Shown here one piece after another: positions 3,691 to 12,891 of a stretch of 64,000 bases of DNA; the first letter of the stretch is position 1; every line of letters starts with the position of its first letter. The DNA lies in the IMG/VR virus record IMGVR_UViG_3300021185_001145, positions 1 through 64,000 of that record. One strand, given 5' to 3'. A program made the position numbers and the translations under genes. The stretch comes from a virus. The notes below the pieces were generated by a model. That model did not search any database, was not told where the DNA came from, and was given only the letters and a program-made list of their open reading frames with translations.

Positions 3691-4356
3691 TTAAGCAACG
3701 TAGGTTGAAGCAGATTCCGTAGTGATAAAGTAAGTGACTTTACTACCAGTCCATCGGCTGATACCCTTTGAGGTGATTTCAACTTGATAGTCACCAGAAA
3801 TCATTTTCAGATTTTCTGTTCGGAATATCATGTTGAAAGTACCAGTTGCCTCAGCATCAACCTCAACATCAAACGTATTCGAAGTAGAGTTTTTACTGTC
3901 ATAGGCTGTCAATGTAATGTTACCACCATTACCGACAACAGCAACTTCTGGCGCTTGCAGAATAGATGCCGCTCTTAGAACCTCAGCAATTTGTGCTTGA
4001 GATACTTTGAAAGAAATTTCTGCACTCTCTAATAGAGGTGAAAGGTCTTTATCTGGAGGTGTGACAATCATTGTTTTGTCGGTGTAATAGTATGTTGATT
4101 TGTTCTTACCTGAAGAAACAACAACAGAGTTTTCACCAAACTCAAAATCTGGGTTTTCAAACAACGAGATTGTTGCAATAAATTGGTTCAAGTCATAAAT
4201 TGCAAATGGAGTATCAAAGGATTCTGAGACATTTGCTTCTGCCAGAATATTCTTTTGACTGCTCACAGTTCGTAGCGTATCACCATCAACGGCAATGCCA
4301 GTATTGATAGTAGAAAAGTTCTTCAATACGCTCAAGGTATCATTACTAATTTTCAT
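3691..4356 (-). CDS. gp45: Sliding clamp
   Basis: MKISNDTLSVLKNFSTIN...FAIYDLNQF...ENLKMISGDY; synteny. Confidence 0.95.
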   Translation of the reverse strand: MKISNDTLSVLKNFSTINTGIAVDGDTLRTVSSQKNILAEANVSESFDTPFAIYDLNQFIATISLFENPDFEFGENSVVVSSGKNKSTYYYTDKTMIVTPPDKDLSPLLESAEISFKVSQAQIAEVLRAASILQAPEVAVVGNGGNITLTAYDSKNSTSNTFDVEVDAEATGTFNMIFRTENLKMISGDYQVEITSKGISRWTGSKVTYFITTESASTYVA

Positions 4357-4787
4357 TCGGTTTCTCCATTTAATATATTATCAGCATTTGCTAGTGTCAT
4401 ATGTATCCACTTAGCACATTCTTTTGCGGTCATTGCATGTTCATCAACAGCAGGCATTCTATCATCTTGACCAATACCTCTAATCACAGATGCACTAAGC
4501 ATCATTGCAGAGGACATAATCAAGGCAACATGGGGTAGACCACTACCACCTTCGCCGTCATCGTAATTACGACCACGTTCGAAATCTTCAATATGTCTTT
4601 TCAGACTGTCAATCATTTGCTGGTAGGGCAGACCCTTTTCCCAGTTTCGATTATCGTATTTGTTTGCACCATATTCAAGTGCCGCGGCACCAGCCGCTAA
4701 CGCCTCTAAAGGCAACTGTCGAAAGTAAGGAACACCAATCGCTTCTCGCATTGCGCCAGTCTCTGATGTTTTCCAATTTTTTGTCAT
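4353..4787 (-). CDS. dATP/dGTP diphosphohydrolase-like protein (DUF5664 family)
   Basis: ETGAMRE...ALEYGANKYDNRNWEKGLPY...DSLKRHI...D..SGLPHVA matches the GAxKYxxxNWxKG...SxxRH...SGLPH pattern of this family. Confidence 0.75.
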   Translation of the reverse strand: MTKNWKTSETGAMREAIGVPYFRQLPLEALAAGAAALEYGANKYDNRNWEKGLPYQQMIDSLKRHIEDFERGRNYDDGEGGSGLPHVALIMSSAMMLSASVIRGIGQDDRMPAVDEHAMTAKECAKWIHMTLANADNILNGETE

Positions 4788-4811
4788 CTCATCTCCTTAA
4801 ATAATATAGCC

Positions 4812-4840
4812 ATAATAACAGGTAAAGGGAGGAATGTCAA
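4812..4840 (-). promoter_or_regulatory. Sigma70-type early promoter for the diphosphohydrolase-gp45-44-62-regA operon
   Basis: TTGACA-17 nt-TATTAT with extended TGn; the -35 lies inside an imperfect inverted repeat (~4825-4856). Confidence 0.8.
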
Positions 4841-4871
4841 GTGACAAACCCCCCTTGCGCCGCCCTCCGAA

Positions 4872-6047
4872 TTAGAATGGTGCATAATCGTCTTTTGTTT
4901 CAGGCGCAGTCTCGCCTTCTTCGGTTGTTGAAACAATCGCCTCAGCATCTACTTTGGTGTAGAGGTCTAGGAATGAAGTTTTGGTTTCTTCATCAAAGCG
5001 GTTCACACAAAGTTCAATTGCTTTCATCTTCTCACCGAAGATAGCGTAGGCTTGGGCAATGTGAACCAGACGGCGAGTGGCGATAATCTCATCAACACCA
5101 CCTTCGTAAAATGTTTTACGAATGATATCTGCCCAGTCAACCAACTTGCCGATGAACCCGTCATCTTCAATCTTCAGAGACTTGAACACTTTGCCGAGAA
5201 TTTTTTTCTCAACTGAGGTGCTTGCATACTCTTGCTCAACAGTAATTGGGAAACGCTCAAGGAACGCTTCATCAAGGATTTGAGCGGCGATGAAACGACC
5301 GTCATCAGAACCTTTACCTTTAGTGTTAGCAGTGGCAACAACGTTGAAACCAGGTGCTGGTTCAACAATCTCACCAGTCTTTTTGTTGATGTAAGGCTTG
5401 CCTTCCATGATTGCTTGAATTGCAAGCAACTTGTTAGAACCACGGTCAATCTCATCAAGAACAAGAACAGCACCACGGCGCATCGCATTCAGAACAGGAC
5501 CTTCACGATAGACAACGTTACCGTTGACTAGTGTATTGCCACCAATCAAATCATCTTCATCAGTCTCAATTGAAACAGACACTTTAATCATCTCACGGTT
5601 TGAAGCCGCACAAGCCTGTTCGACCATGAACGTTTTACCGTTACCAGATAGACCAGTCACCATGACAGGATAGAACATTTTAGAAACAAGAATGTTTTTC
5701 AAATCATTGAAGAACCCGAAAGGCACATAAAGCGCATCTTTGGCAGGGACAAAATTTTCTGAAATAGTCTGGGTCATAGTCACAGGTTTCATCGGGATGA
5801 CTTGAGCAACAGCCATAGCAGGTGCTTCAACAGCAGGCGCTACAGTCTGAGCGGTGATAGCATCAGCGGTAGGCAGACGATACTGACCACGACCAATACG
5901 AAATTCAGGTTTAGTAAAAATAAAGCGTGGGCGCTTGGCACCCATCTCTTCGGCGAGGTCGCAAATTTCTTGCTTGGTCACAACAGGACCAAACTTTGCA
6001 ACAGCGGCTTCAACGAAGGAATTCTGTTCAGTTGTCATTTTCATCAT
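4872..6047 (-). CDS. cobS: MoxR-type AAA+ ATPase (annotated 'CobS' in T4-like phages)
   Basis: Walker A GLSGNGKT, TDEDDLIGG, Walker B VLVLDEID, ATANTKGKG, LDEAFLERF, IATRRLV. Confidence 0.88.
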   Translation of the reverse strand: MMKMTTEQNSFVEAAVAKFGPVVTKQEICDLAEEMGAKRPRFIFTKPEFRIGRGQYRLPTADAITAQTVAPAVEAPAMAVAQVIPMKPVTMTQTISENFVPAKDALYVPFGFFNDLKNILVSKMFYPVMVTGLSGNGKTFMVEQACAASNREMIKVSVSIETDEDDLIGGNTLVNGNVVYREGPVLNAMRRGAVLVLDEIDRGSNKLLAIQAIMEGKPYINKKTGEIVEPAPGFNVVATANTKGKGSDDGRFIAAQILDEAFLERFPITVEQEYASTSVEKKILGKVFKSLKIEDDGFIGKLVDWADIIRKTFYEGGVDEIIATRRLVHIAQAYAIFGEKMKAIELCVNRFDEETKTSFLDLYTKVDAEAIVSTTEEGETAPETKDDYAPF

Positions 6048-6109
6048 AATATAGCCTCATTAGAGTTTTCACAAATCGGGGAGAACACTTTCGCCCCATC
6101 AACATATAC

Positions 6110-6138
6110 ATTATAGGTGGTTTTGCCTAGAATGTCAA
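6110..6138 (-). promoter_or_regulatory. Consensus sigma70 early promoter for cobS
   Basis: Perfect TTGACA-17-TATAAT. Confidence 0.9.
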
Positions 6139-6186
6139 GGATTATTTTGGTTTATTTTGGTTTATTTCGTGGTTTTTTTGGTTTAT
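6139..6186 (-). repeat. ~10-bp phased A-tract repeats (CCAAAATAAA-like), probable UP element
   Basis: AAATAAACCAAAATAAACCAAAATAATCC directly upstream of TTGACA; the same motif occurs at 8608-8625, 8696-8728 and 53956-53977. Confidence 0.75.
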
Positions 6187-6309
6187 GTGAGAAGTGACTA
6201 TATCAAGCATCATTTTTGTCGCTTCGATTTGGTCTCGATTGCCATTTCTCACAGCCATCATATAGTTTTCTTGCGCCATTTTGATATCATTATCAGTAAC
6301 ATCAATCAC
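6142..6309 (-). CDS. Small hypothetical protein (55 aa), not in the ORF track
   Basis: GTG start overlaps the cobT TGA stop (GTGA) with GGAG upstream; MIDVTDNDIKMAQENYMMAVRNGNRDQIEATKMMLDIVTSHINQKNHEINQNKPK*. Confidence 0.55.
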   Translation of the reverse strand: MIDVTDNDIKMAQENYMMAVRNGNRDQIEATKMMLDIVTSHINQKNHEINQNKPK

Positions 6310-8546
6310 GCCGCAATCTCCATCAGACGGTTTAGCAATACACGGTTTGCTGTTTTGCTCTTAGAGTTTTTCATAAACGCTGTTTTCAATCGTGCTTTTG
6401 AAGCACCAGCATCAACATCTAACCCAGTGTCAGTGGTTGTCATATCATCACCACCAGGGATTAAGAAGTATGACTGGTAGCCAGCATTGTTCACTTCAAG
6501 GAACTTTTTAGAACGAATGCTTTTCACAACGTCTTGGTCGTAAATGCCGTAACGTGCCGCTTGACCACGAATTTCACGAGGACGATTGTCCATGATGAAG
6601 AACCCGATAGTGTTGACACTGTGGCGGTCGCCAATCATTTCGATTAGTGTATTAGTAACTGAGCGATTTTTCACAGTGTATTGTTGCTTGGTCACAGTAT
6701 CTTGGATGACAGTTGTTTTGCGGTAGCCACCGACATAAACACCAGTTTCACGTTTTTCAGTATCACCATCATACTGAACAACTGCATTACATGCGTGGCT
6801 TTCACCGTCAGTCAGGACAACCAAGTTCGCAACTTGAACACGGGTGCGCTCACGGAACTTTTTGATAACATCAGGCATCAGGGTCAATGCATCATCAAGC
6901 GGAGTGCCGCCCAATTGCAAGGCTTGTGGAATATCAAAACGATAGTAACGACCGTTTGCGAGACATTCACGCATTGCCAACATACCCTTACATGCATCAT
7001 TGAATTCTGTCAATTTCATTTCACTGTTGAACAGTGTCATTAAAGACACCTGACGGTCAGAAGGAATTAAAGTACCCACTGGCTGAGACAGCAAATAATC
7101 TTTTTTGATTTTCTGTTTGGCACGGATTTCAAGGCGCTTCATCTCATTACCATCACGATAATAAGTATCCGCAGAGTAGTGGTCAGAGAAAGCATAAACT
7201 TCAAAAGGGATTTTTACTTTCTTGCAGAACATTACAAGGTTCAACAACTGGTCGATAGTCGCCGCCATGTTGCCAGCCATAGAACCAGACCAATCAAGTA
7301 ACATACTGAAACCGTGGTTCTTACCGCCAGTGACAGTAGTAACACGCTTAAACAGGTCATCATTATACTTGTATGAATAGATTTTTGACATATCAAGTTG
7401 ACCAGTTTTAGCAGTTGACGCCCGCTTGAATTCATCAGCCTTTTTCTTCAGTTCGAATTCTTTAACCATGTAGTTCACAACCTTCTGGTTGCTTTTACGC
7501 CACTCAGTCCATTTCGCATCAACTTCAGCCTCAACAGCGGCAGAGGTAAACATTTGTTTGTACTGAGAATTGATTTCACTGAAAGGCACGATAAAATCAT
7601 CAGACTTGAGAGTACCAAGAGTAAGATATTCAAACTCTTGACCACCCTGCTTCATCAGAGTACCTTCATTAGAGCGGAACGCCGCATCAGTCTGGCTTTC
7701 GATTAATTCTTCAGGAGACGAAGGCGTATCATCAATTTCTTCATCATCATAATCGTCATAATCATCATCCTCATAGTCACCAGAACCAGAAGTATCAGTA
7801 TCGTCATCGTCACCATCTTCATCAGAAGCAGTGCCTTTGCCACTTTCGAATTGCTCACCTTCTTCATCATTATCATCAGAACCGTCGGTGTCAGTACCTT
7901 CATTGTCTTGGTCATCATCATCAGAATTGTCACCAGAAGCGCCAGAAAGCAATTCTTCTACTTTCTCTTCCATCTCTTGTTCAGCCTGTTCAATTTGCTG
8001 ACCATAGAGGTCTTGAGAAATCTGCATAACATCTTCAAATGTCTCAGCGGCTTCAATCTTCTGAACCCACTCTGCTTCTTCACCTTCGAACTTGAGGTTC
8101 ACAAGAGTACCTAGTTTGAAGTGAAGATTAAGACGGTCAATGAACGCCATTTCAGTAATGTCTTTACCAGCAATACCGAAGAAATCACGCTCAAGTAATT
8201 CAGCGTAACCTTCACGATATGCCTTTGTAAGACCTGGGTATTTTGCTTTGATTTTCTTCTCAATCCGAGCGTCTTCTACAATGTTCACAAAACCTTTGAA
8301 GGCTGGACCACCAGTAGAGACTGCATCATGCCAACCCGCTTCTGGTGTCCAGAGAGCGTGACCGACTTCATGGCTTGTCATCAAATCATAGAGATTGACA
8401 CTCAAACCATCTTTAAGATTGGGAAGGGTGAGAACACGGTTCTTTACGTCAAAAGATGCAGTCGGCACGTTTTGATGCTGAACAGTTAAGTTCTCTGTCG
8501 CCATCAGTTTGGCGAGTTGGGACTTTGTATTTGCTATCTTATTCAT
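6306..8546 (-). CDS. Metallopeptidase-like (HExxH) plus acidic linker plus VWA-domain protein ('CobT'-like partner of the AAA+)
   Basis: HEVGHALWT and NIVEDARIE; Asp/Glu-rich linker; MIDAS LLDWSGSM, GGTPL, LTDGES. Start moved to ATG 8546 because the track start at 8567 sits almost on the predicted +1. Confidence 0.85.
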   Translation of the reverse strand: MNKIANTKSQLAKLMATENLTVQHQNVPTASFDVKNRVLTLPNLKDGLSVNLYDLMTSHEVGHALWTPEAGWHDAVSTGGPAFKGFVNIVEDARIEKKIKAKYPGLTKAYREGYAELLERDFFGIAGKDITEMAFIDRLNLHFKLGTLVNLKFEGEEAEWVQKIEAAETFEDVMQISQDLYGQQIEQAEQEMEEKVEELLSGASGDNSDDDDQDNEGTDTDGSDDNDEEGEQFESGKGTASDEDGDDDDTDTSGSGDYEDDDYDDYDDEEIDDTPSSPEELIESQTDAAFRSNEGTLMKQGGQEFEYLTLGTLKSDDFIVPFSEINSQYKQMFTSAAVEAEVDAKWTEWRKSNQKVVNYMVKEFELKKKADEFKRASTAKTGQLDMSKIYSYKYNDDLFKRVTTVTGGKNHGFSMLLDWSGSMAGNMAATIDQLLNLVMFCKKVKIPFEVYAFSDHYSADTYYRDGNEMKRLEIRAKQKIKKDYLLSQPVGTLIPSDRQVSLMTLFNSEMKLTEFNDACKGMLAMRECLANGRYYRFDIPQALQLGGTPLDDALTLMPDVIKKFRERTRVQVANLVVLTDGESHACNAVVQYDGDTEKRETGVYVGGYRKTTVIQDTVTKQQYTVKNRSVTNTLIEMIGDRHSVNTIGFFIMDNRPREIRGQAARYGIYDQDVVKSIRSKKFLEVNNAGYQSYFLIPGGDDMTTTDTGLDVDAGASKARLKTAFMKNSKSKTANRVLLNRLMEIAA

Positions 8547-8727: not shown

Positions 8728-9408
8728 TTATTTTATAGCAATCGCACCCACAAACAGATGATTTTGCCAAAATGTCTGAACACTGCTAAAACCAGCATAT
8801 TCAAGCATTTCATTCAATTCAGACCATGTATTTGGCTTTAACATGTTGCGTAACGTCTGTTCTTTGTTCATAATATCTTCTGCGTTGAAACTCTCACGCT
8901 TATGGTCATAGAACATGAATGTCAGTATATCTTGCACTTTAGGAGAGCAAGAATATGTCTTCTCTGCAAAGATAAACGCACCACCCGGATTGAGTGCTTC
9001 ATATACGTTATTCAACACTTCTTGTCTATCTTTGCGTGGCATGAACTGTAGTGTAAAGATTGAAGTGACTAAAGACGCATTGTGCATATGAACATCACGC
9101 ACATCTTCGAAACGCAATTCTAGGTCGTCAACTTCATGCTTACGCATTCTCTCATCCATCGCTTCTTTGAAGCCATCTGCCATTTCAAAACCGACATAAT
9201 GAGCATGTGGCGCAAATGTATTTTGCTCAATCATTGCACCTAGTGTCTTGCCTGTAGAACAACCCAAATCATATACGTTTGTATCGTCCTCAACAAAATA
9301 TTTTGACATCTTAACAATGTCATCGTGTAGTACAGAATACCCACGAATTGATTGGTCTATGTGATTATCGAAACCCTCTTCACGGTGTGCAAAAGTAAAA
9401 TCAGCCAT
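8728..9408 (-). CDS. cmoA: CmoA-like carboxy-S-adenosylmethionine synthase (class I SAM fold)
   Basis: FTF...FDNHIDQSIRGY...NVYDLGCSTG...DVRDV...NASLVTSIFTLQF...LNPGGAFIFAEK is colinear with E. coli CmoA as recalled (WTFD...FPDMIQRSVPGY...QVYDLGCSLG...NASMVVLNFTLQF...LNPGGALVLSEK). Confidence 0.85.
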   Translation of the reverse strand: MADFTFAHREEGFDNHIDQSIRGYSVLHDDIVKMSKYFVEDDTNVYDLGCSTGKTLGAMIEQNTFAPHAHYVGFEMADGFKEAMDERMRKHEVDDLELRFEDVRDVHMHNASLVTSIFTLQFMPRKDRQEVLNNVYEALNPGGAFIFAEKTYSCSPKVQDILTFMFYDHKRESFNAEDIMNKEQTLRNMLKPNTWSELNEMLEYAGFSSVQTFWQNHLFVGAIAIK

Positions 9409-10540
9409 TATTGTATCCCTTCAAAACGTTTTCATAAATGCTAGTTGCAACTGCTTTATACATCAATGGAGCAACTGCACGACCAAGACGCTCTACCTGA
9501 GCATCAAATTCACCTGTCAAAATAAAGTCTTCTGGGAAACCCATCAGACGTTTACACTCTTTAATAGTCAACTTACGATTTGCTTCTGGGTGAAATACAC
9601 CAGACATTCCTCGCTTCTGACCTTGCTGAGTTAGTGTTGGAGATGGCATATCTGGACAAGGGCGTATCATGTTGAAACAACTTGCCTTTGGATTCCATTC
9701 TCTAAACTGTGGGTCACTCGGTTTTGTATGTTTCTTTGGGTTGAACGGAAGAGGTGTGATAAACTTCTTCTGATATGAACCCTCAACAAAATCAAGTAAC
9801 ATCTGAACTTCTTCTTCATCATTCTCAATATCTGCTAGTGCTTCACGCATTGAAATATGCTTGTCGATTGTAGGGGCAGGAAAGATGTTATGCAAGTTTA
9901 AAAAAGACAAACCAACTTTATCTGCTACATCTTCACGCACACAAATAAAGATTGTACGTTCTCTTGCTTGAGGTACGCCATAGTTTGCACCATTCAAAAC
10001 TTCGTATGTAACATTGTAACCAATTGCCTCAAACGCATTGATAAACGCATTCAGTTTACTTTTTGCTTCACCAAATGTGATACCCTTGACGTTCTCTGCA
10101 ACAATTACTTTCGGTTGAATACCTTCTGCAATACGAATGAATTCATAGAACAAATCTTCGATTGCAACTTGCTTCTTTCCGTCAGAGTAACTTTTCTCTT
10201 TACCCCAACCTTTTTCTCGCTTACCAGCAACGGAGAAAGCAGAACAAGGGGGAGACCCATCAAGTATGTCGAGTTCGCCCTTTTGTACTCCTGCCATGCT
10301 AAGGAAGTCTTCTGCGCTGTATTTCTTAATGTCATCAACTAGAACTTTCGTATCGGGAAAGTTTGCAGTGTATGTTTCAACAGCGGCTTCTACAAACTCA
10401 TTAATCAGTAATATGTCTGAACCTGCTAGACGATACCCCAATGAAGAACCGCCACCACCAGCAAAACAACTGATAGTAGTGAACTTCTTTTGAGATGAAA
10501 GTGCTTTCACATCATCAACATTATATTTTTCATATCTCAT
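9401..10540 (-). CDS. DNA cytosine-C5 methyltransferase-family enzyme, predicted carboxymethyltransferase
   Basis: Motif I FAGGGG, IV GSPPCSAFS, VI ENVKG, VIII QARER, IX RKLTIKECKRLMGFP, X GRAV (canonical GN[A/S]V). Overlaps the cmoA start by 8 nt. Confidence 0.92.
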   Translation of the reverse strand: MRYEKYNVDDVKALSSQKKFTTISCFAGGGGSSLGYRLAGSDILLINEFVEAAVETYTANFPDTKVLVDDIKKYSAEDFLSMAGVQKGELDILDGSPPCSAFSVAGKREKGWGKEKSYSDGKKQVAIEDLFYEFIRIAEGIQPKVIVAENVKGITFGEAKSKLNAFINAFEAIGYNVTYEVLNGANYGVPQARERTIFICVREDVADKVGLSFLNLHNIFPAPTIDKHISMREALADIENDEEEVQMLLDFVEGSYQKKFITPLPFNPKKHTKPSDPQFREWNPKASCFNMIRPCPDMPSPTLTQQGQKRGMSGVFHPEANRKLTIKECKRLMGFPEDFILTGEFDAQVERLGRAVAPLMYKAVATSIYENVLKGYNNG

Positions 10541-10572
10541 ATTTTATACACTTTTCTACGGTTATTTAAAGT

Positions 10573-10601
10573 ATAGTAACACACTTTTCTGCGGTTGTCA
10601 A
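10573..10601 (-). promoter_or_regulatory. Sigma70-type promoter for the MTase-cmoA pair
   Basis: TTGACA-17-TACTAT with extended TGn; the -35 overlaps the upstream gene's TGA. Confidence 0.8.
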
Positions 10602-11410
10602 GCAAAAAGTGAAGGAGTTGCAGAATAATTTACATAGTCTCTAACCAAGTCCATGGTTCTACCCCTATTGCGATAGTTCAATTCTTTGTCTTCAAGCAAC
10701 TGTTCGAAATACTCAGGAATACCAGCAACCAACTGTAGATTAGCATGTTTACGCTTTTTGGGTAGTTTTTCGAATTCTTCATATGCTTCGATAATTGGTG
10801 CTTTCTGATATGGCTTGTTAAAGAAATCGTGGTCGTACCGCATCATCCACTCTTTCACACTTTCACGCACATAAGGTGCGACTAAGTTCGCTTCTATCTC
10901 TTCACACAACTGTTCTTGCTGTAGAATGCCAGCAGGATTCTCTGCACCAAAGTAATCATTGCGAAACTTATCAAACAACTCTTTCGTATGCTTGAAGTGA
11001 ATGTTTGCACGTTTTGATACACCATACCAACCATCTGCGGCAACACCAGACAATACATGCTTCTCTTTAATATGAGGATAAACATAAAGAAACGGGAATG
11101 TACATTCTACATGTGTCTTCTTCTTACAGTCATAGTAACGCATCAGACGCAAGAAATCATCTTTCACATTATTGACTGGTACATCAATCTCATGGTGATT
11201 CCAACCATATATCTCAGCCGCTTCTTTCGCCGCTAAACTATCGACTGTTTCTTGACCATTCACATACATCGTATATGTGTGTACGTTTTTTCCTAAACGC
11301 ATTGCAGAAAATGCACAAGTCAAACTATCGACACCACCAGACATTAAAACAGCAACGTCTTTTCCAGGTGCTTCATCTTCTACTATTTTTGTTATTAAAT
11401 CATCAATCAT
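10598..11410 (-). CDS. Asparagine-synthetase-like PP-loop ATP-dependent amide ligase lacking the glutaminase domain
   Basis: VAVLMSGGVDS (PP-loop) and VLSGVAADGWYG (cf. AsnB VLSGEGADELFGGY); only 270 aa, with no N-terminal Ntn domain. Confidence 0.82.
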   Translation of the reverse strand: MIDDLITKIVEDEAPGKDVAVLMSGGVDSLTCAFSAMRLGKNVHTYTMYVNGQETVDSLAAKEAAEIYGWNHHEIDVPVNNVKDDFLRLMRYYDCKKKTHVECTFPFLYVYPHIKEKHVLSGVAADGWYGVSKRANIHFKHTKELFDKFRNDYFGAENPAGILQQEQLCEEIEANLVAPYVRESVKEWMMRYDHDFFNKPYQKAPIIEAYEEFEKLPKKRKHANLQLVAGIPEYFEQLLEDKELNYRNRGRTMDLVRDYVNYSATPSLFA

Positions 11411-11814
11411 TTTATTTTACTTACTTGTACGCCACTACGCAATAAGAACTGAATGCCCTCATCTGTCTTGTAGTGGTCTCTATAATATACAGTATCAATA
11501 CCTGCTTGATATATCAACTTAGCACAGTCAATGCATGGTGATGCTGTGCAGAATAAAATTGCGTCATCTGCGCTATCGTTTCCTCTTGCAATCTTTGTAA
11601 TTGCATTTGCTTCTGCATGTAGCACTTCTTTTTTTGTGTTACCATCTTCATCTTCACATACATTAGACCAACCAGCAGGCATACCGTTGTATCCAATAGA
11701 AATAATTCTATCGTCTTTCACAACAACACAACCCACTTTAAGACGTTCCGCAGAAGATAACTGTGCGTACACTTCTGCGGCGTCCATATGCGCTTTAATG
11801 AATTTGCTCTTCAC
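11407..11814 (-). CDS. cd: dCMP deaminase
   Basis: KVGCVVVK..RIISIGYNG, HAEANAI, PCIDC zinc motifs. Probable start is GTG at 11814 (GAGG upstream) rather than 11841. Confidence 0.93.
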   Translation of the reverse strand: MKSKFIKAHMDAAEVYAQLSSAERLKVGCVVVKDDRIISIGYNGMPAGWSNVCEDEDGNTKKEVLHAEANAITKIARGNDSADDAILFCTASPCIDCAKLIYQAGIDTVYYRDHYKTDEGIQFLLRSGVQVSKIK

Positions 11815-12196
11815 TATCTGCGCCCTCTTCTGCATCTTCAATCTGCATTTGCTCTAATGCCTCTGCTGGCATTTCTTCATACAACTCTTGGTTCTTATGC
11901 CAGACGTTGAATACGCTTTGAACATCTTCTTCACGGTGCGTTGTGGAATCAGCAAGTTCATCGTATACTTTTTTCTCATACTCACCGAACTTTGGGTTCA
12001 TCCACATGTGAATATCTTCGCCAGTTGCCATATCAGTTACTTCAACGAATACGACTTCTTGTGTCTCTAAAACGAACACTGCGGTCATTGCGTCATCGAA
12101 CTGAAGAACCCAGGAATCACCAAAGTCTTCAAATAAGAATGGTCCGCCTTCGACAATGCGTAGACCTGTTGCTTCAATTAGTTGTTGAAAATTCAT
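11795..12196 (-). CDS. Hypothetical acidic protein
   Basis: 133-aa ORF in frame with the operon, GGAG SD; no motif recognised. Confidence 0.75.
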   Translation of the reverse strand: MNFQQLIEATGLRIVEGGPFLFEDFGDSWVLQFDDAMTAVFVLETQEVVFVEVTDMATGEDIHMWMNPKFGEYEKKVYDELADSTTHREEDVQSVFNVWHKNQELYEEMPAEALEQMQIEDAEEGADSEEQIH

Positions 12197-12207
12197 AATA
12201 TCTCTCC

Positions 12208-12891
12208 TTAAATAAGTCTATGAATAGCGTACTGTTTACCAAGACGCTTGTTTCGTTTTTTCATTGCCATGTGTTTCTGTAAAGGTGAAACGAACTTCCA
12301 GAAAGGTTTACCTCTACTGAGTGCATAATTCTGAATGTAGTATCTACTCCATTCGTGTTGTACTCTTTCTCTATGCTCCTGATTAGAAACATCATAATAG
12401 ATAATGTCTGCAAATACTGGACGCTCAATATTCAAATACAACGCAGGATAACTTGCAGAAATCTCTCTACCTTTATGACCCTCATCAGATAACGCTTTAA
12501 TTTTAGAATTGATGAATGTCTCATACTCTGGTTCATCATCTGCACGTTGTTCAACAGGTTTTGGGTTTACAATGATAAAGAAATCATAATTGACACCCAC
12601 TTGTGATGCATGAATTGATGGACCGCTTCTGTTCTTTGACATTCTGAACAATACTTCAGCGAGTAAAGATGCTTCCATAACAAAAACAAAACCATCTTCC
12701 ATTTTCAATACAGGTGGTTTATCAAAAGGGTAATGAGCGCATGTTGTAAATGGCTTCATATTCTTTTTATCCAAATCAGTCTTAAAAGAAAAATACTTCA
12801 TAAGTTTCTCTACGTCAGGAACTTGTTGAACACTCTTCATCATTTCAGCGACTTCTTTACGCTCTTCTTTTACTTGTTCTACTTCACTCAT
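12208..12891 (-). CDS. Peptide deformylase-fold protein with degenerate catalytic motifs
   Basis: GPSIHASQVG (cf. GxGxAAxQxG), FINSKI (cf. INPxI), EISASYP (cf. EGCLSxP), ERP, IQNYALSRG (cf. QHExDHLxG); coupled to gp46. Confidence 0.7.
   Translation of the reverse strand: MSEVEQVKEERKEVAEMMKSVQQVPDVEKLMKYFSFKTDLDKKNMKPFTTCAHYPFDKPPVLKMEDGFVFVMEASLLAEVLFRMSKNRSGPSIHASQVGVNYDFFIIVNPKPVEQRADDEPEYETFINSKIKALSDEGHKGREISASYPALYLNIERPVFADIIYYDVSNQEHRERVQHEWSRYYIQNYALSRGKPFWKFVSPLQKHMAMKKRNKRLGKQYAIHRLI

Follow-up and report, generated by a model that had tools for sequence, protein, structure and literature searches.

We conclude, with a probability of about 0.82, that three adjacent genes in positions 1 to 64,000 of the IMG/VR virus record IMGVR_UViG_3300021185_001145 (the window, i.e., the whole 64,000-nucleotide [nt] stretch analysed here) form a module for DNA hypermodification of the CmoY-CmoX-CmoA kind in a T4-like marine phage that is uncultured. 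As predicted from their sequences, the genes encode an ATP-dependent amide ligase of the CmoY type, a DNA cytosine C5-carboxymethyltransferase of the CmoX type, and a carboxy-S-adenosyl-L-methionine (Cx-SAM) synthase of the phage CmoA type. The system itself has already been published by Yang et al. (Nat Commun 2025;17:281; PMC12783734), who described a CmoA-CmoX-CmoY pathway in Synechococcus phage S-B43, and the window cassette is one further example. IMG/VR v4 was a source database of that study, and the window contig is probably already among its CmoX candidates. A preliminary description, made from the window sequence, had proposed a chain from Cx-SAM to 5-carboxymethylcytosine (5cxmC) to an amide with an anti-restriction function, and mentioned a recent report of a similar architecture in a cyanophage. 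Such a cyanophage report does exist, the S-B43 study (PMC12783734), and the proposed chain finds its precedent there, with orthologues of 49–54% identity that keep the defining residues.

According to that report, the S-B43 phage CmoA produces Cx-SAM, and SpCmoA and EcCmoA make it from S-adenosyl-L-methionine (SAM) and prephenate. SpCmoX, a homologue of C5 DNA methyltransferases (MTases), uses Cx-SAM to generate 5cxmC at GC motifs in double-stranded DNA; Cx-SAM is the sole cofactor of the wild-type enzyme, and the R350N mutant uses neither cofactor. SpCmoY, an asparagine-synthetase homologue, ligates glycine to 5cxmC in an ATP-driven reaction, and the glycine amide (5gcxmC) was found in native S-B43 DNA. 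CmoX candidates were defined by an SPPC motif together with Arg350, a residue in contact with the carboxylate of Cx-SAM in crystal structure 8YF3, and IMG/VR v4, UniProtKB and MGnify contained 5,615 candidate CmoX, 4,257 CmoA and 2,251 ligase sequences (PMC12783734).

Defining residues and folds of the three proteins

The CmoX-type protein belongs to PF00145 (Pfam, E 4e-59) and is 53% identical to SpCmoX (E 2e-131). Its top match among solved structures is 8YF3, i.e., SpCmoX (E 1.1e-111), followed by M.HaeIII (8.5e-26). Within this C5-MTase fold, the SPPC motif S96-C99 aligns with S95-C98 of SpCmoX, and R354 in LGRAV pairs with R350 in VGRMV of SpCmoX, the Arg that replaces the Asn of HhaI. 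The residues that contact Cx-SAM in SpCmoX are likewise present (F25, E47, F48 and D69, corresponding to F26, E48, F49 and D70 in the window protein), and residues 1–205 are identical to SpCmoX at 130 of 204 positions (64%). SPPC and the Arg are kept in all 26 full-length CmoX homologues from IMG/VR and in those of S-B43 and S-CRM01. The phage DNA searched contains a single C5 MTase gene, and no gene of the thymidylate-synthase/deoxycytidine monophosphate (dCMP)-hydroxymethylase family, which would pre-empt C5, was found there. The CmoX proteins of loci L012 to L029 of the survey described below (407–417 residues) have an insertion of ∼27 residues between the GW that follows motif IV and a conserved YSD element; this insertion is absent in the window CmoX and in SpCmoX.

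The ligase matches PF00733 (Asn_synthase) over residues 18–140 only (Pfam, E 3e-15) and has no glutaminase domain, for which its 270 residues leave no space. It is 49% identical to SpCmoY over 263 residues (260 bits, E 8e-92), as expected of an orthologue, and S24, G26, D28 and S29 of its SGGVDS motif are invariant across 16 aligned homologues. A sequence search of solved structures returned only a weak match to the QueC PP-loop (E 0.0012), and a fold search was therefore needed to place the protein. The predicted structure (mean predicted local distance difference test score [pLDDT] 80.4) resembles known synthetase domains, namely those of beta-lactam synthetase, E. coli AsnB, human ASNS and carbapenam synthetase, with which it superposes at query TM-scores (TMq) of 0.65–0.73 (about 0.7 for the folds 1MC1, 1CT9 and 6GQ3), at 13–17% identity in the structural alignments. 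The earlier assignment as an AsnB-like PP-loop ligase that lacks a glutaminase domain is thus upheld by the Pfam match, the motif and the fold.

The CmoA homologue matches only generic SAM-MTase families in Pfam. The best NCBIfam model for this 226-residue protein is CmoA TIGR00740 (E 8.7e-36, 123.8 bits); in addition, it matches phrog_4752 (E 4.7e-64) and the CmoA structures 1IM8 (E 5e-29) and 4GEK from E. coli (E 4.5e-27). It is 54% identical to SpCmoA over 228 residues, i.e., homologous over its full length to a CmoA that is active. The preliminary description had noted the lack of cmoB in the window, and a search for the gene (TIGR00452) across all 83,590 bp of the record, whose completeness is estimated at 46%, did not find it either. 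The PHROGs matches of the three cassette proteins are phrog_4752, phrog_116 and phrog_26038. Profile and structure searches had been suggested as a check at the outset; they place the three proteins with the CmoA, CmoX and Asn-synthetase-type families and structures. In all the sequence features compared here by which the published CmoA-CmoX-CmoY system is recognized, the cassette agrees with it.

Based on the S-B43 experiments, we infer by analogy the catalytic activities, the identity of the amine and an anti-restriction role for the window cassette. In the proposed mechanism, CmoA would convert SAM and host prephenate to Cx-SAM. CmoX would flip the target cytosine out of the double-stranded phage DNA, attack C6 by means of Cys99 and transfer the carboxymethyl group of Cx-SAM to C5, giving 5cxmC, while Arg354 would grip the carboxylate of the cofactor. 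The ligase would then adenylate the carboxylate of 5cxmC with ATP and join it to an amine, for which glycine or another small alpha-amino acid is the likeliest candidate. The end product, an amide-bearing base like the 5gcxmC of S-B43, would block restriction enzymes.

Linkage of the three genes

Homology, the defining residues and the fold are accompanied by linkage of the three genes. With the ligase as query, 30 loci with 41–100% identity were retrieved from IMG/VR, and the neighbours in them were located by tblastn. Two loci, L010 and L030, end within the ligase gene and were excluded, leaving 28 informative loci; CmoX lies directly downstream of the ligase in 27 of them, the exception being L011. 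CmoA is next after CmoX in 21 of the 26 loci with DNA reaching that far (L031 is cut within CmoX), and in the window the CmoA start codon (9406–9408) and the CmoX stop codon (9401–9403) lie in an 8-nt overlap of the two genes. The three genes are linked in loci down to 41% ligase identity, and the order gp46 ... ligase-CmoX-CmoA ... CobT is kept down to 53%. Linkage in related genomes, which the preliminary description had named as a test of its proposal, is therefore the rule among these loci.

In a lineage with ∼30% G+C (L023 to L027, ∼6000–8400), the ligase and an Arg-bearing CmoX are present, and a 70-residue open reading frame (ORF) followed by CobT replaces CmoA. A search of the remaining DNA of five contigs (L023, L024, L026, L027 and L011), all of them fragments that are 7–33% complete, found no CmoA (0 of 5). 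The phages of L023 to L027 may rely on host CmoA for Cx-SAM.

Two loci are described here in their own right. In L011 (1–4000), a ligase homologue with 69% identity has no CmoX downstream; the contig begins within the ligase gene, and CmoX could lie upstream. Past the ligase are an ORF of 184 residues for an unknown protein, a 177-residue NPPW protein that may be an amino-methyltransferase, an ORF resembling glycosyltransferases, and genes like gp45 and gp44. In Methylophilales phage Melnitz (L003, MZ577097.1), positions 4010–5227 encode the closest non-cyanophage relative of CmoX, with 43% identity. It keeps SPPC and has Leu at the R350 position (RIGLMVA), the end of its gene is overlapped by a gene for a hypothetical protein of 328 residues, and no CmoA was found within the 10 kb examined near it.

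Points against the module and alternative explanations

Several observations weigh against the assignment of the three genes to a CmoY-CmoX-CmoA module. The CmoA homologue, at 123.8 bits, does not reach the equivalog cut-off of TIGR00740 (193.3 bits), although this cut-off was set for bacterial CmoA and the shortfall concerns only whether the protein belongs to the bacterial equivalog. The carboxylate-binding residue of E. coli CmoA is Arg199; in the HMMER alignment, the phage protein has Glu at this position and Arg four residues on, so that phage CmoA reads K-E-x-x-L-R (residues 182–187; window 8836–8875, minus strand) where E. coli CmoA reads K-R-S-M-L-E. K182, E183, L186 and R187 are invariant in 24 of 24 aligned phage CmoAs, SpCmoA among them. 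Because the experimentally active SpCmoA has the same Glu/Arg pattern, the swap is no argument against activity, and the alignments indicate that it is a feature of the phage clade and not a defect, compatible with activity. In CmoX, the recognition region (residues 206–320) is identical to SpCmoX at only 38 of 103 positions (37%) and has two insertions of 5 and 6 residues, the latter right after the conserved SPTLT; given this divergence, the GC motif of SpCmoX is not transferable to the window CmoX. The absences of genes are weak evidence, the record being only 46% complete. Finally, AGCT, GGCC and GCWGC each include a GC, and their near-absence is unexpected under full GC protection, since complete modification of every GC would leave no need to purge these sites.

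This avoidance is extreme. With expectations from a second-order Markov model of the 64-kb window, GATC and AGCT are absent (0 observed for both; 229 and 126 expected), GGCC occurs twice (56 expected), CCGG 8 times (58 expected) and CGCG 12 times (93 expected), while GCGC (94 observed, 118 expected) and TGCA (422 observed, 491 expected) are kept; GCWGC has a raw count of 3. The close relatives (L005 to L010 and L030) have the same pattern, whereas other CmoX-bearing clades avoid other sites (TGCA in L012 and L015; AGCT in L028 and L029). One possible explanation is partial modification, by analogy with S-B43, in which an estimated 75% of GC sites are modified (PMC12783734). It is also possible that the modification does not block the host enzymes at the avoided sites, or that the CmoX motif is narrower than GC. 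Because avoidance reflects host enzymes, an inference of the target motif from k-mer counts is suggestive at most.

The diverged recognition region and the avoidance bear on whether CmoX recognizes a longer or different motif than GC, e.g., one that covers GCGC, so that a subset of sites is protected and the rest are avoided. The contrast between 37% identity in this region and 64% in the N-terminal catalytic part, the two insertions, and the depletion of GATC, AGCT, GGCC, CCGG and CGCG next to the retention of GCGC all point in this direction. However, avoidance mainly mirrors host restriction enzymes, and GCGC may simply escape targeting; partial modification, as in S-B43, would likewise leave selection for avoidance; and specificity is not readable from sequence alone. 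We regard a motif other than GC as possible yet doubtful.

A related question is which amine the ligase uses. The preliminary description had left the product as either a carboxamide or an amine conjugate; SpCmoY, the closest ligase, is reported to make the glycine amide 5gcxmC rather than a simple carboxamide. The pathway could also be the same up to 5cxmC and end with coupling to ammonia, to a polyamine or to some amino acid besides glycine, in which case the final base would not be 5gcxmC. Several ligase clusters in the published survey have distinct active-site residues and unidentified amines (PMC12783734), the window ligase is only 49% identical to SpCmoY, and 6 of the 66 columns that are invariant among its 16 homologues differ in SpCmoY (A20, A124, H141, T142, L145 and K218). 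However, the other 60 columns, 22 of them charged, are identical in SpCmoY, and the 260-bit match lies far above the level of roughly 30% identity at which the largest cluster, with predicted glycine/alpha-amino-acid binding, coheres (PMC12783734); moreover, the ligase has no glutaminase domain as a source of ammonia. The shared invariant residues and the score thus favour glycine or a similar amino acid, and we consider a different amine unlikely.

Taken together, the two questions raise the tentative suggestion that the mark of this marine lineage is unlike that of S-B43, either because CmoX has a longer motif, possibly covering the spared GCGC, or because the ligase uses an amino acid other than glycine. 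If this were true by either route, the result would be a hypermodified cytosine that has not been described, or else a variant with site selectivity acting in concert with near-total avoidance of GATC, AGCT, GGCC, CCGG and CGCG. The diverged recognition domain could serve to study variation in CmoX specificity, and the phage to ask why a bulky cytosine modification coexists with extreme avoidance of restriction sites.

Finally, the three genes could be unrelated in function, i.e., an ordinary 5-methylcytosine (5mC) methyltransferase, a CmoA that boosts the uridine 5-oxyacetic acid (cmo5U) modification of host tRNA, and an unrelated PP-loop enzyme. The names in the source databases (tRNA (cmo5U34)-methyltransferase, DNA (cytosine-5)-methyltransferase 1 and asparagine synthetase B) would fit this explanation, and the three Pfam families are each common on their own. 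Yet the motif-X Asn is replaced by Arg, and SpCmoX, which has this Arg, uses Cx-SAM only (PMC12783734); the search for cmoB in the 83.6-kb record found none; and linkage is kept down to 41% ligase identity, with CmoX and CmoA overlapping by 8 nt. On these grounds, we rejected a plain 5mC methylase next to a tRNA-directed CmoA and consider functional independence of the three genes highly improbable. The CmoY-CmoX-CmoA module remains our preferred reading, and re-annotation is needed, as the proteins stand under these names in public sources.

The phage and its occurrence

The IMG/VR record from which the window comes is linear and 83,590 bp long, and the above estimate of its completeness is from CheckV. 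T4-like genes in the window include gp46-like, gp47-like, gp55-like sigma factor, CobS-like and CobT-like genes, and gp46 is only ∼50% identical to that of its closest relatives in culture (Stenotrophomonas DLP_6, Methylophilales phage Melnitz and Prochlorococcus/Synechococcus phages). When the cassette was compared with the phage collection by megablast, nothing matched, so no cultured phage is a close relative in DNA sequence. Neither psbA nor a ParB_N protein, the latter present on many CmoX contigs (PMC12783734), was found in the 83.6-kb, 46% complete record, and the window has no tRNA genes.

The exact cassette proteins are present only in metagenome sources. Of the sampled words of the cassette, 79–91% occur in each of 14 DNA runs labelled marine, seawater or viral metagenome and in one run labelled only metagenome; the runs are from at least 13 studies dated 2017–2025. 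In independent seawater assemblies, contigs of runs X3 and X5 bridge CobT-CmoA-CmoX with 6–10 differences, and only the X3 contig continues into the ligase. A seawater metatranscriptome run (X17) has contigs of 151–294 nt on CmoA and CmoX (9093–10472) and none on the ligase; these contigs show neither level nor strand, and DNA carry-over is possible. Altogether, the published pathway also occurs at a fixed position between gp46 and CobT, in another gene order, in an abundant lineage of uncultured marine T4-like phages.

Cassette layout and neighbouring genes

The three genes are co-oriented (Table 1), and their coordinates in the preliminary description, including the overlap of CmoA with the MTase stop codon, agree exactly with the ORF list of the window. 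The ligase and CmoX genes are separated by 57 nt. The junction contains a match to a sigma-70-like promoter; because promoter-like matches in the region are not in excess over shuffled sequences (15 versus 14.5), it is a consensus match only. A terminator scan found none around the cassette.

Table 1. Coordinates of cassette features in the window
Feature	Position	Strand	Basis
Predicted CmoY-type ATP-dependent amide ligase, 270 residues	10598..11410	-	ORF; synthetase domain only, Asn-synthetase type
PP-loop motif SGGVDS, ligase residues 24-29	11324..11341	-	Translation; position counted from ORF start 11410
Predicted CmoX-type DNA cytosine C5-carboxymethyltransferase, 379 residues	9401..10540	-	ORF, PF00145 and 8YF3 match
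SPPC motif S96-P97-P98-C99 with catalytic Cys	10244..10255	-	SpCmoX alignment; counted from ORF start 10540
Arg354 codon, motif X (LGRAV), equivalent to SpCmoX R350	9479..9481	-	Alignments to SpCmoX
Predicted phage CmoA-type Cx-SAM synthase, 226 residues	8728..9408	-	ORF, TIGR00740, phrog_4752, SpCmoA identity
Tentative sigma-70-like promoter match, TTGACA-17-TACTAT, TG-extended	10573..10601	-	Ligase/CmoX junction; 10/12 hexamer positions

A dCMP deaminase gene (11407–11841, minus strand; PF00383) overlaps the start of the ligase gene by 4 nt. It lies beside the ligase in the close relatives (L005 to L010 and L030) and not in more distant loci, and is probably part of ordinary T4-type nucleotide metabolism rather than of the cassette. 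Further along, 12208–12891 (minus strand) encodes a peptide-deformylase (PDF)-like protein (PF01327, E 5.9e-11). This protein has EISAS and QNYAL, whereas its relative in L023 (5345–5893) has the canonical-looking EGCL and HEYDH; based on these motifs, the window protein may be a catalytically dead PDF.

Comparison with known systems

The closest known system is that of S-B43. All three enzymes are present in both phages (identity of 54% for CmoA, 53% for CmoX and 49% for the ligase), which also share SPPC, the Arg equivalent to R350 and the residues that contact Cx-SAM. The ligases both lack a glutaminase domain and are of nearly the same length (270 residues in the window and 271 in S-B43), and in each case the genes lie next to one another in the same orientation, in a T4-like phage in which cmoB has not been found. 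The gene order, however, is Y-X-A in the window and A-Y-X in S-B43 (locus L001), and the window cassette lies between gp46/gp47/dCMP deaminase and CobT, while that of S-B43 lies beside primase-helicase and pyrophosphatase genes. The recognition domain of the window CmoX is 37% identical to that of SpCmoX and has two insertions, and the window phage is an uncultured marine phage known from sequence alone, with psbA not found in 83.6 kb.

S-CRM01 also has adjacent genes for CmoA and CmoX, which are 57% and 49% identical to the window proteins and have SPPC and the Arg. It differs in being a two-gene CmoA-CmoX arrangement with no ligase within the 13 kb examined, whereas the window has one; without a ligase in this region, the end product in S-CRM01 would be 5cxmC itself. 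A further parallel is the engineered M.MpeI N374K, in which replacement of the motif-X Asn by Lys allows a C5 MTase fold to use Cx-SAM and form 5cxmC (as cited in PMC12783734). Like the window CmoX, it has a basic residue instead of the motif-X Asn; unlike it, the mutant was made in the laboratory, has Lys as this residue, is specific for CG and lacks a dedicated CmoA or ligase.

In comparison to the bacterial CmoA/CmoB pathway for tRNA cmo5U, the window CmoA matches TIGR00740 and 4GEK/1IM8 over its full length. It differs in its sub-cut-off score and in that CmoB was not detected in the window record, and by analogy with S-B43 the acceptor would be a DNA cytosine and not a tRNA uridine. Lastly, the window ligase resembles AsnB, beta-lactam synthetase and carbapenam synthetase in the fold of its synthetase domain, in its PP-loop and, presumably, in its adenylate-forming chemistry, but it is only 13–17% identical to these enzymes and has no N-terminal glutaminase domain. 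In contrast to AsnB-type enzymes, the orthologue of the window ligase in S-B43 has a DNA base as its carboxylate substrate.

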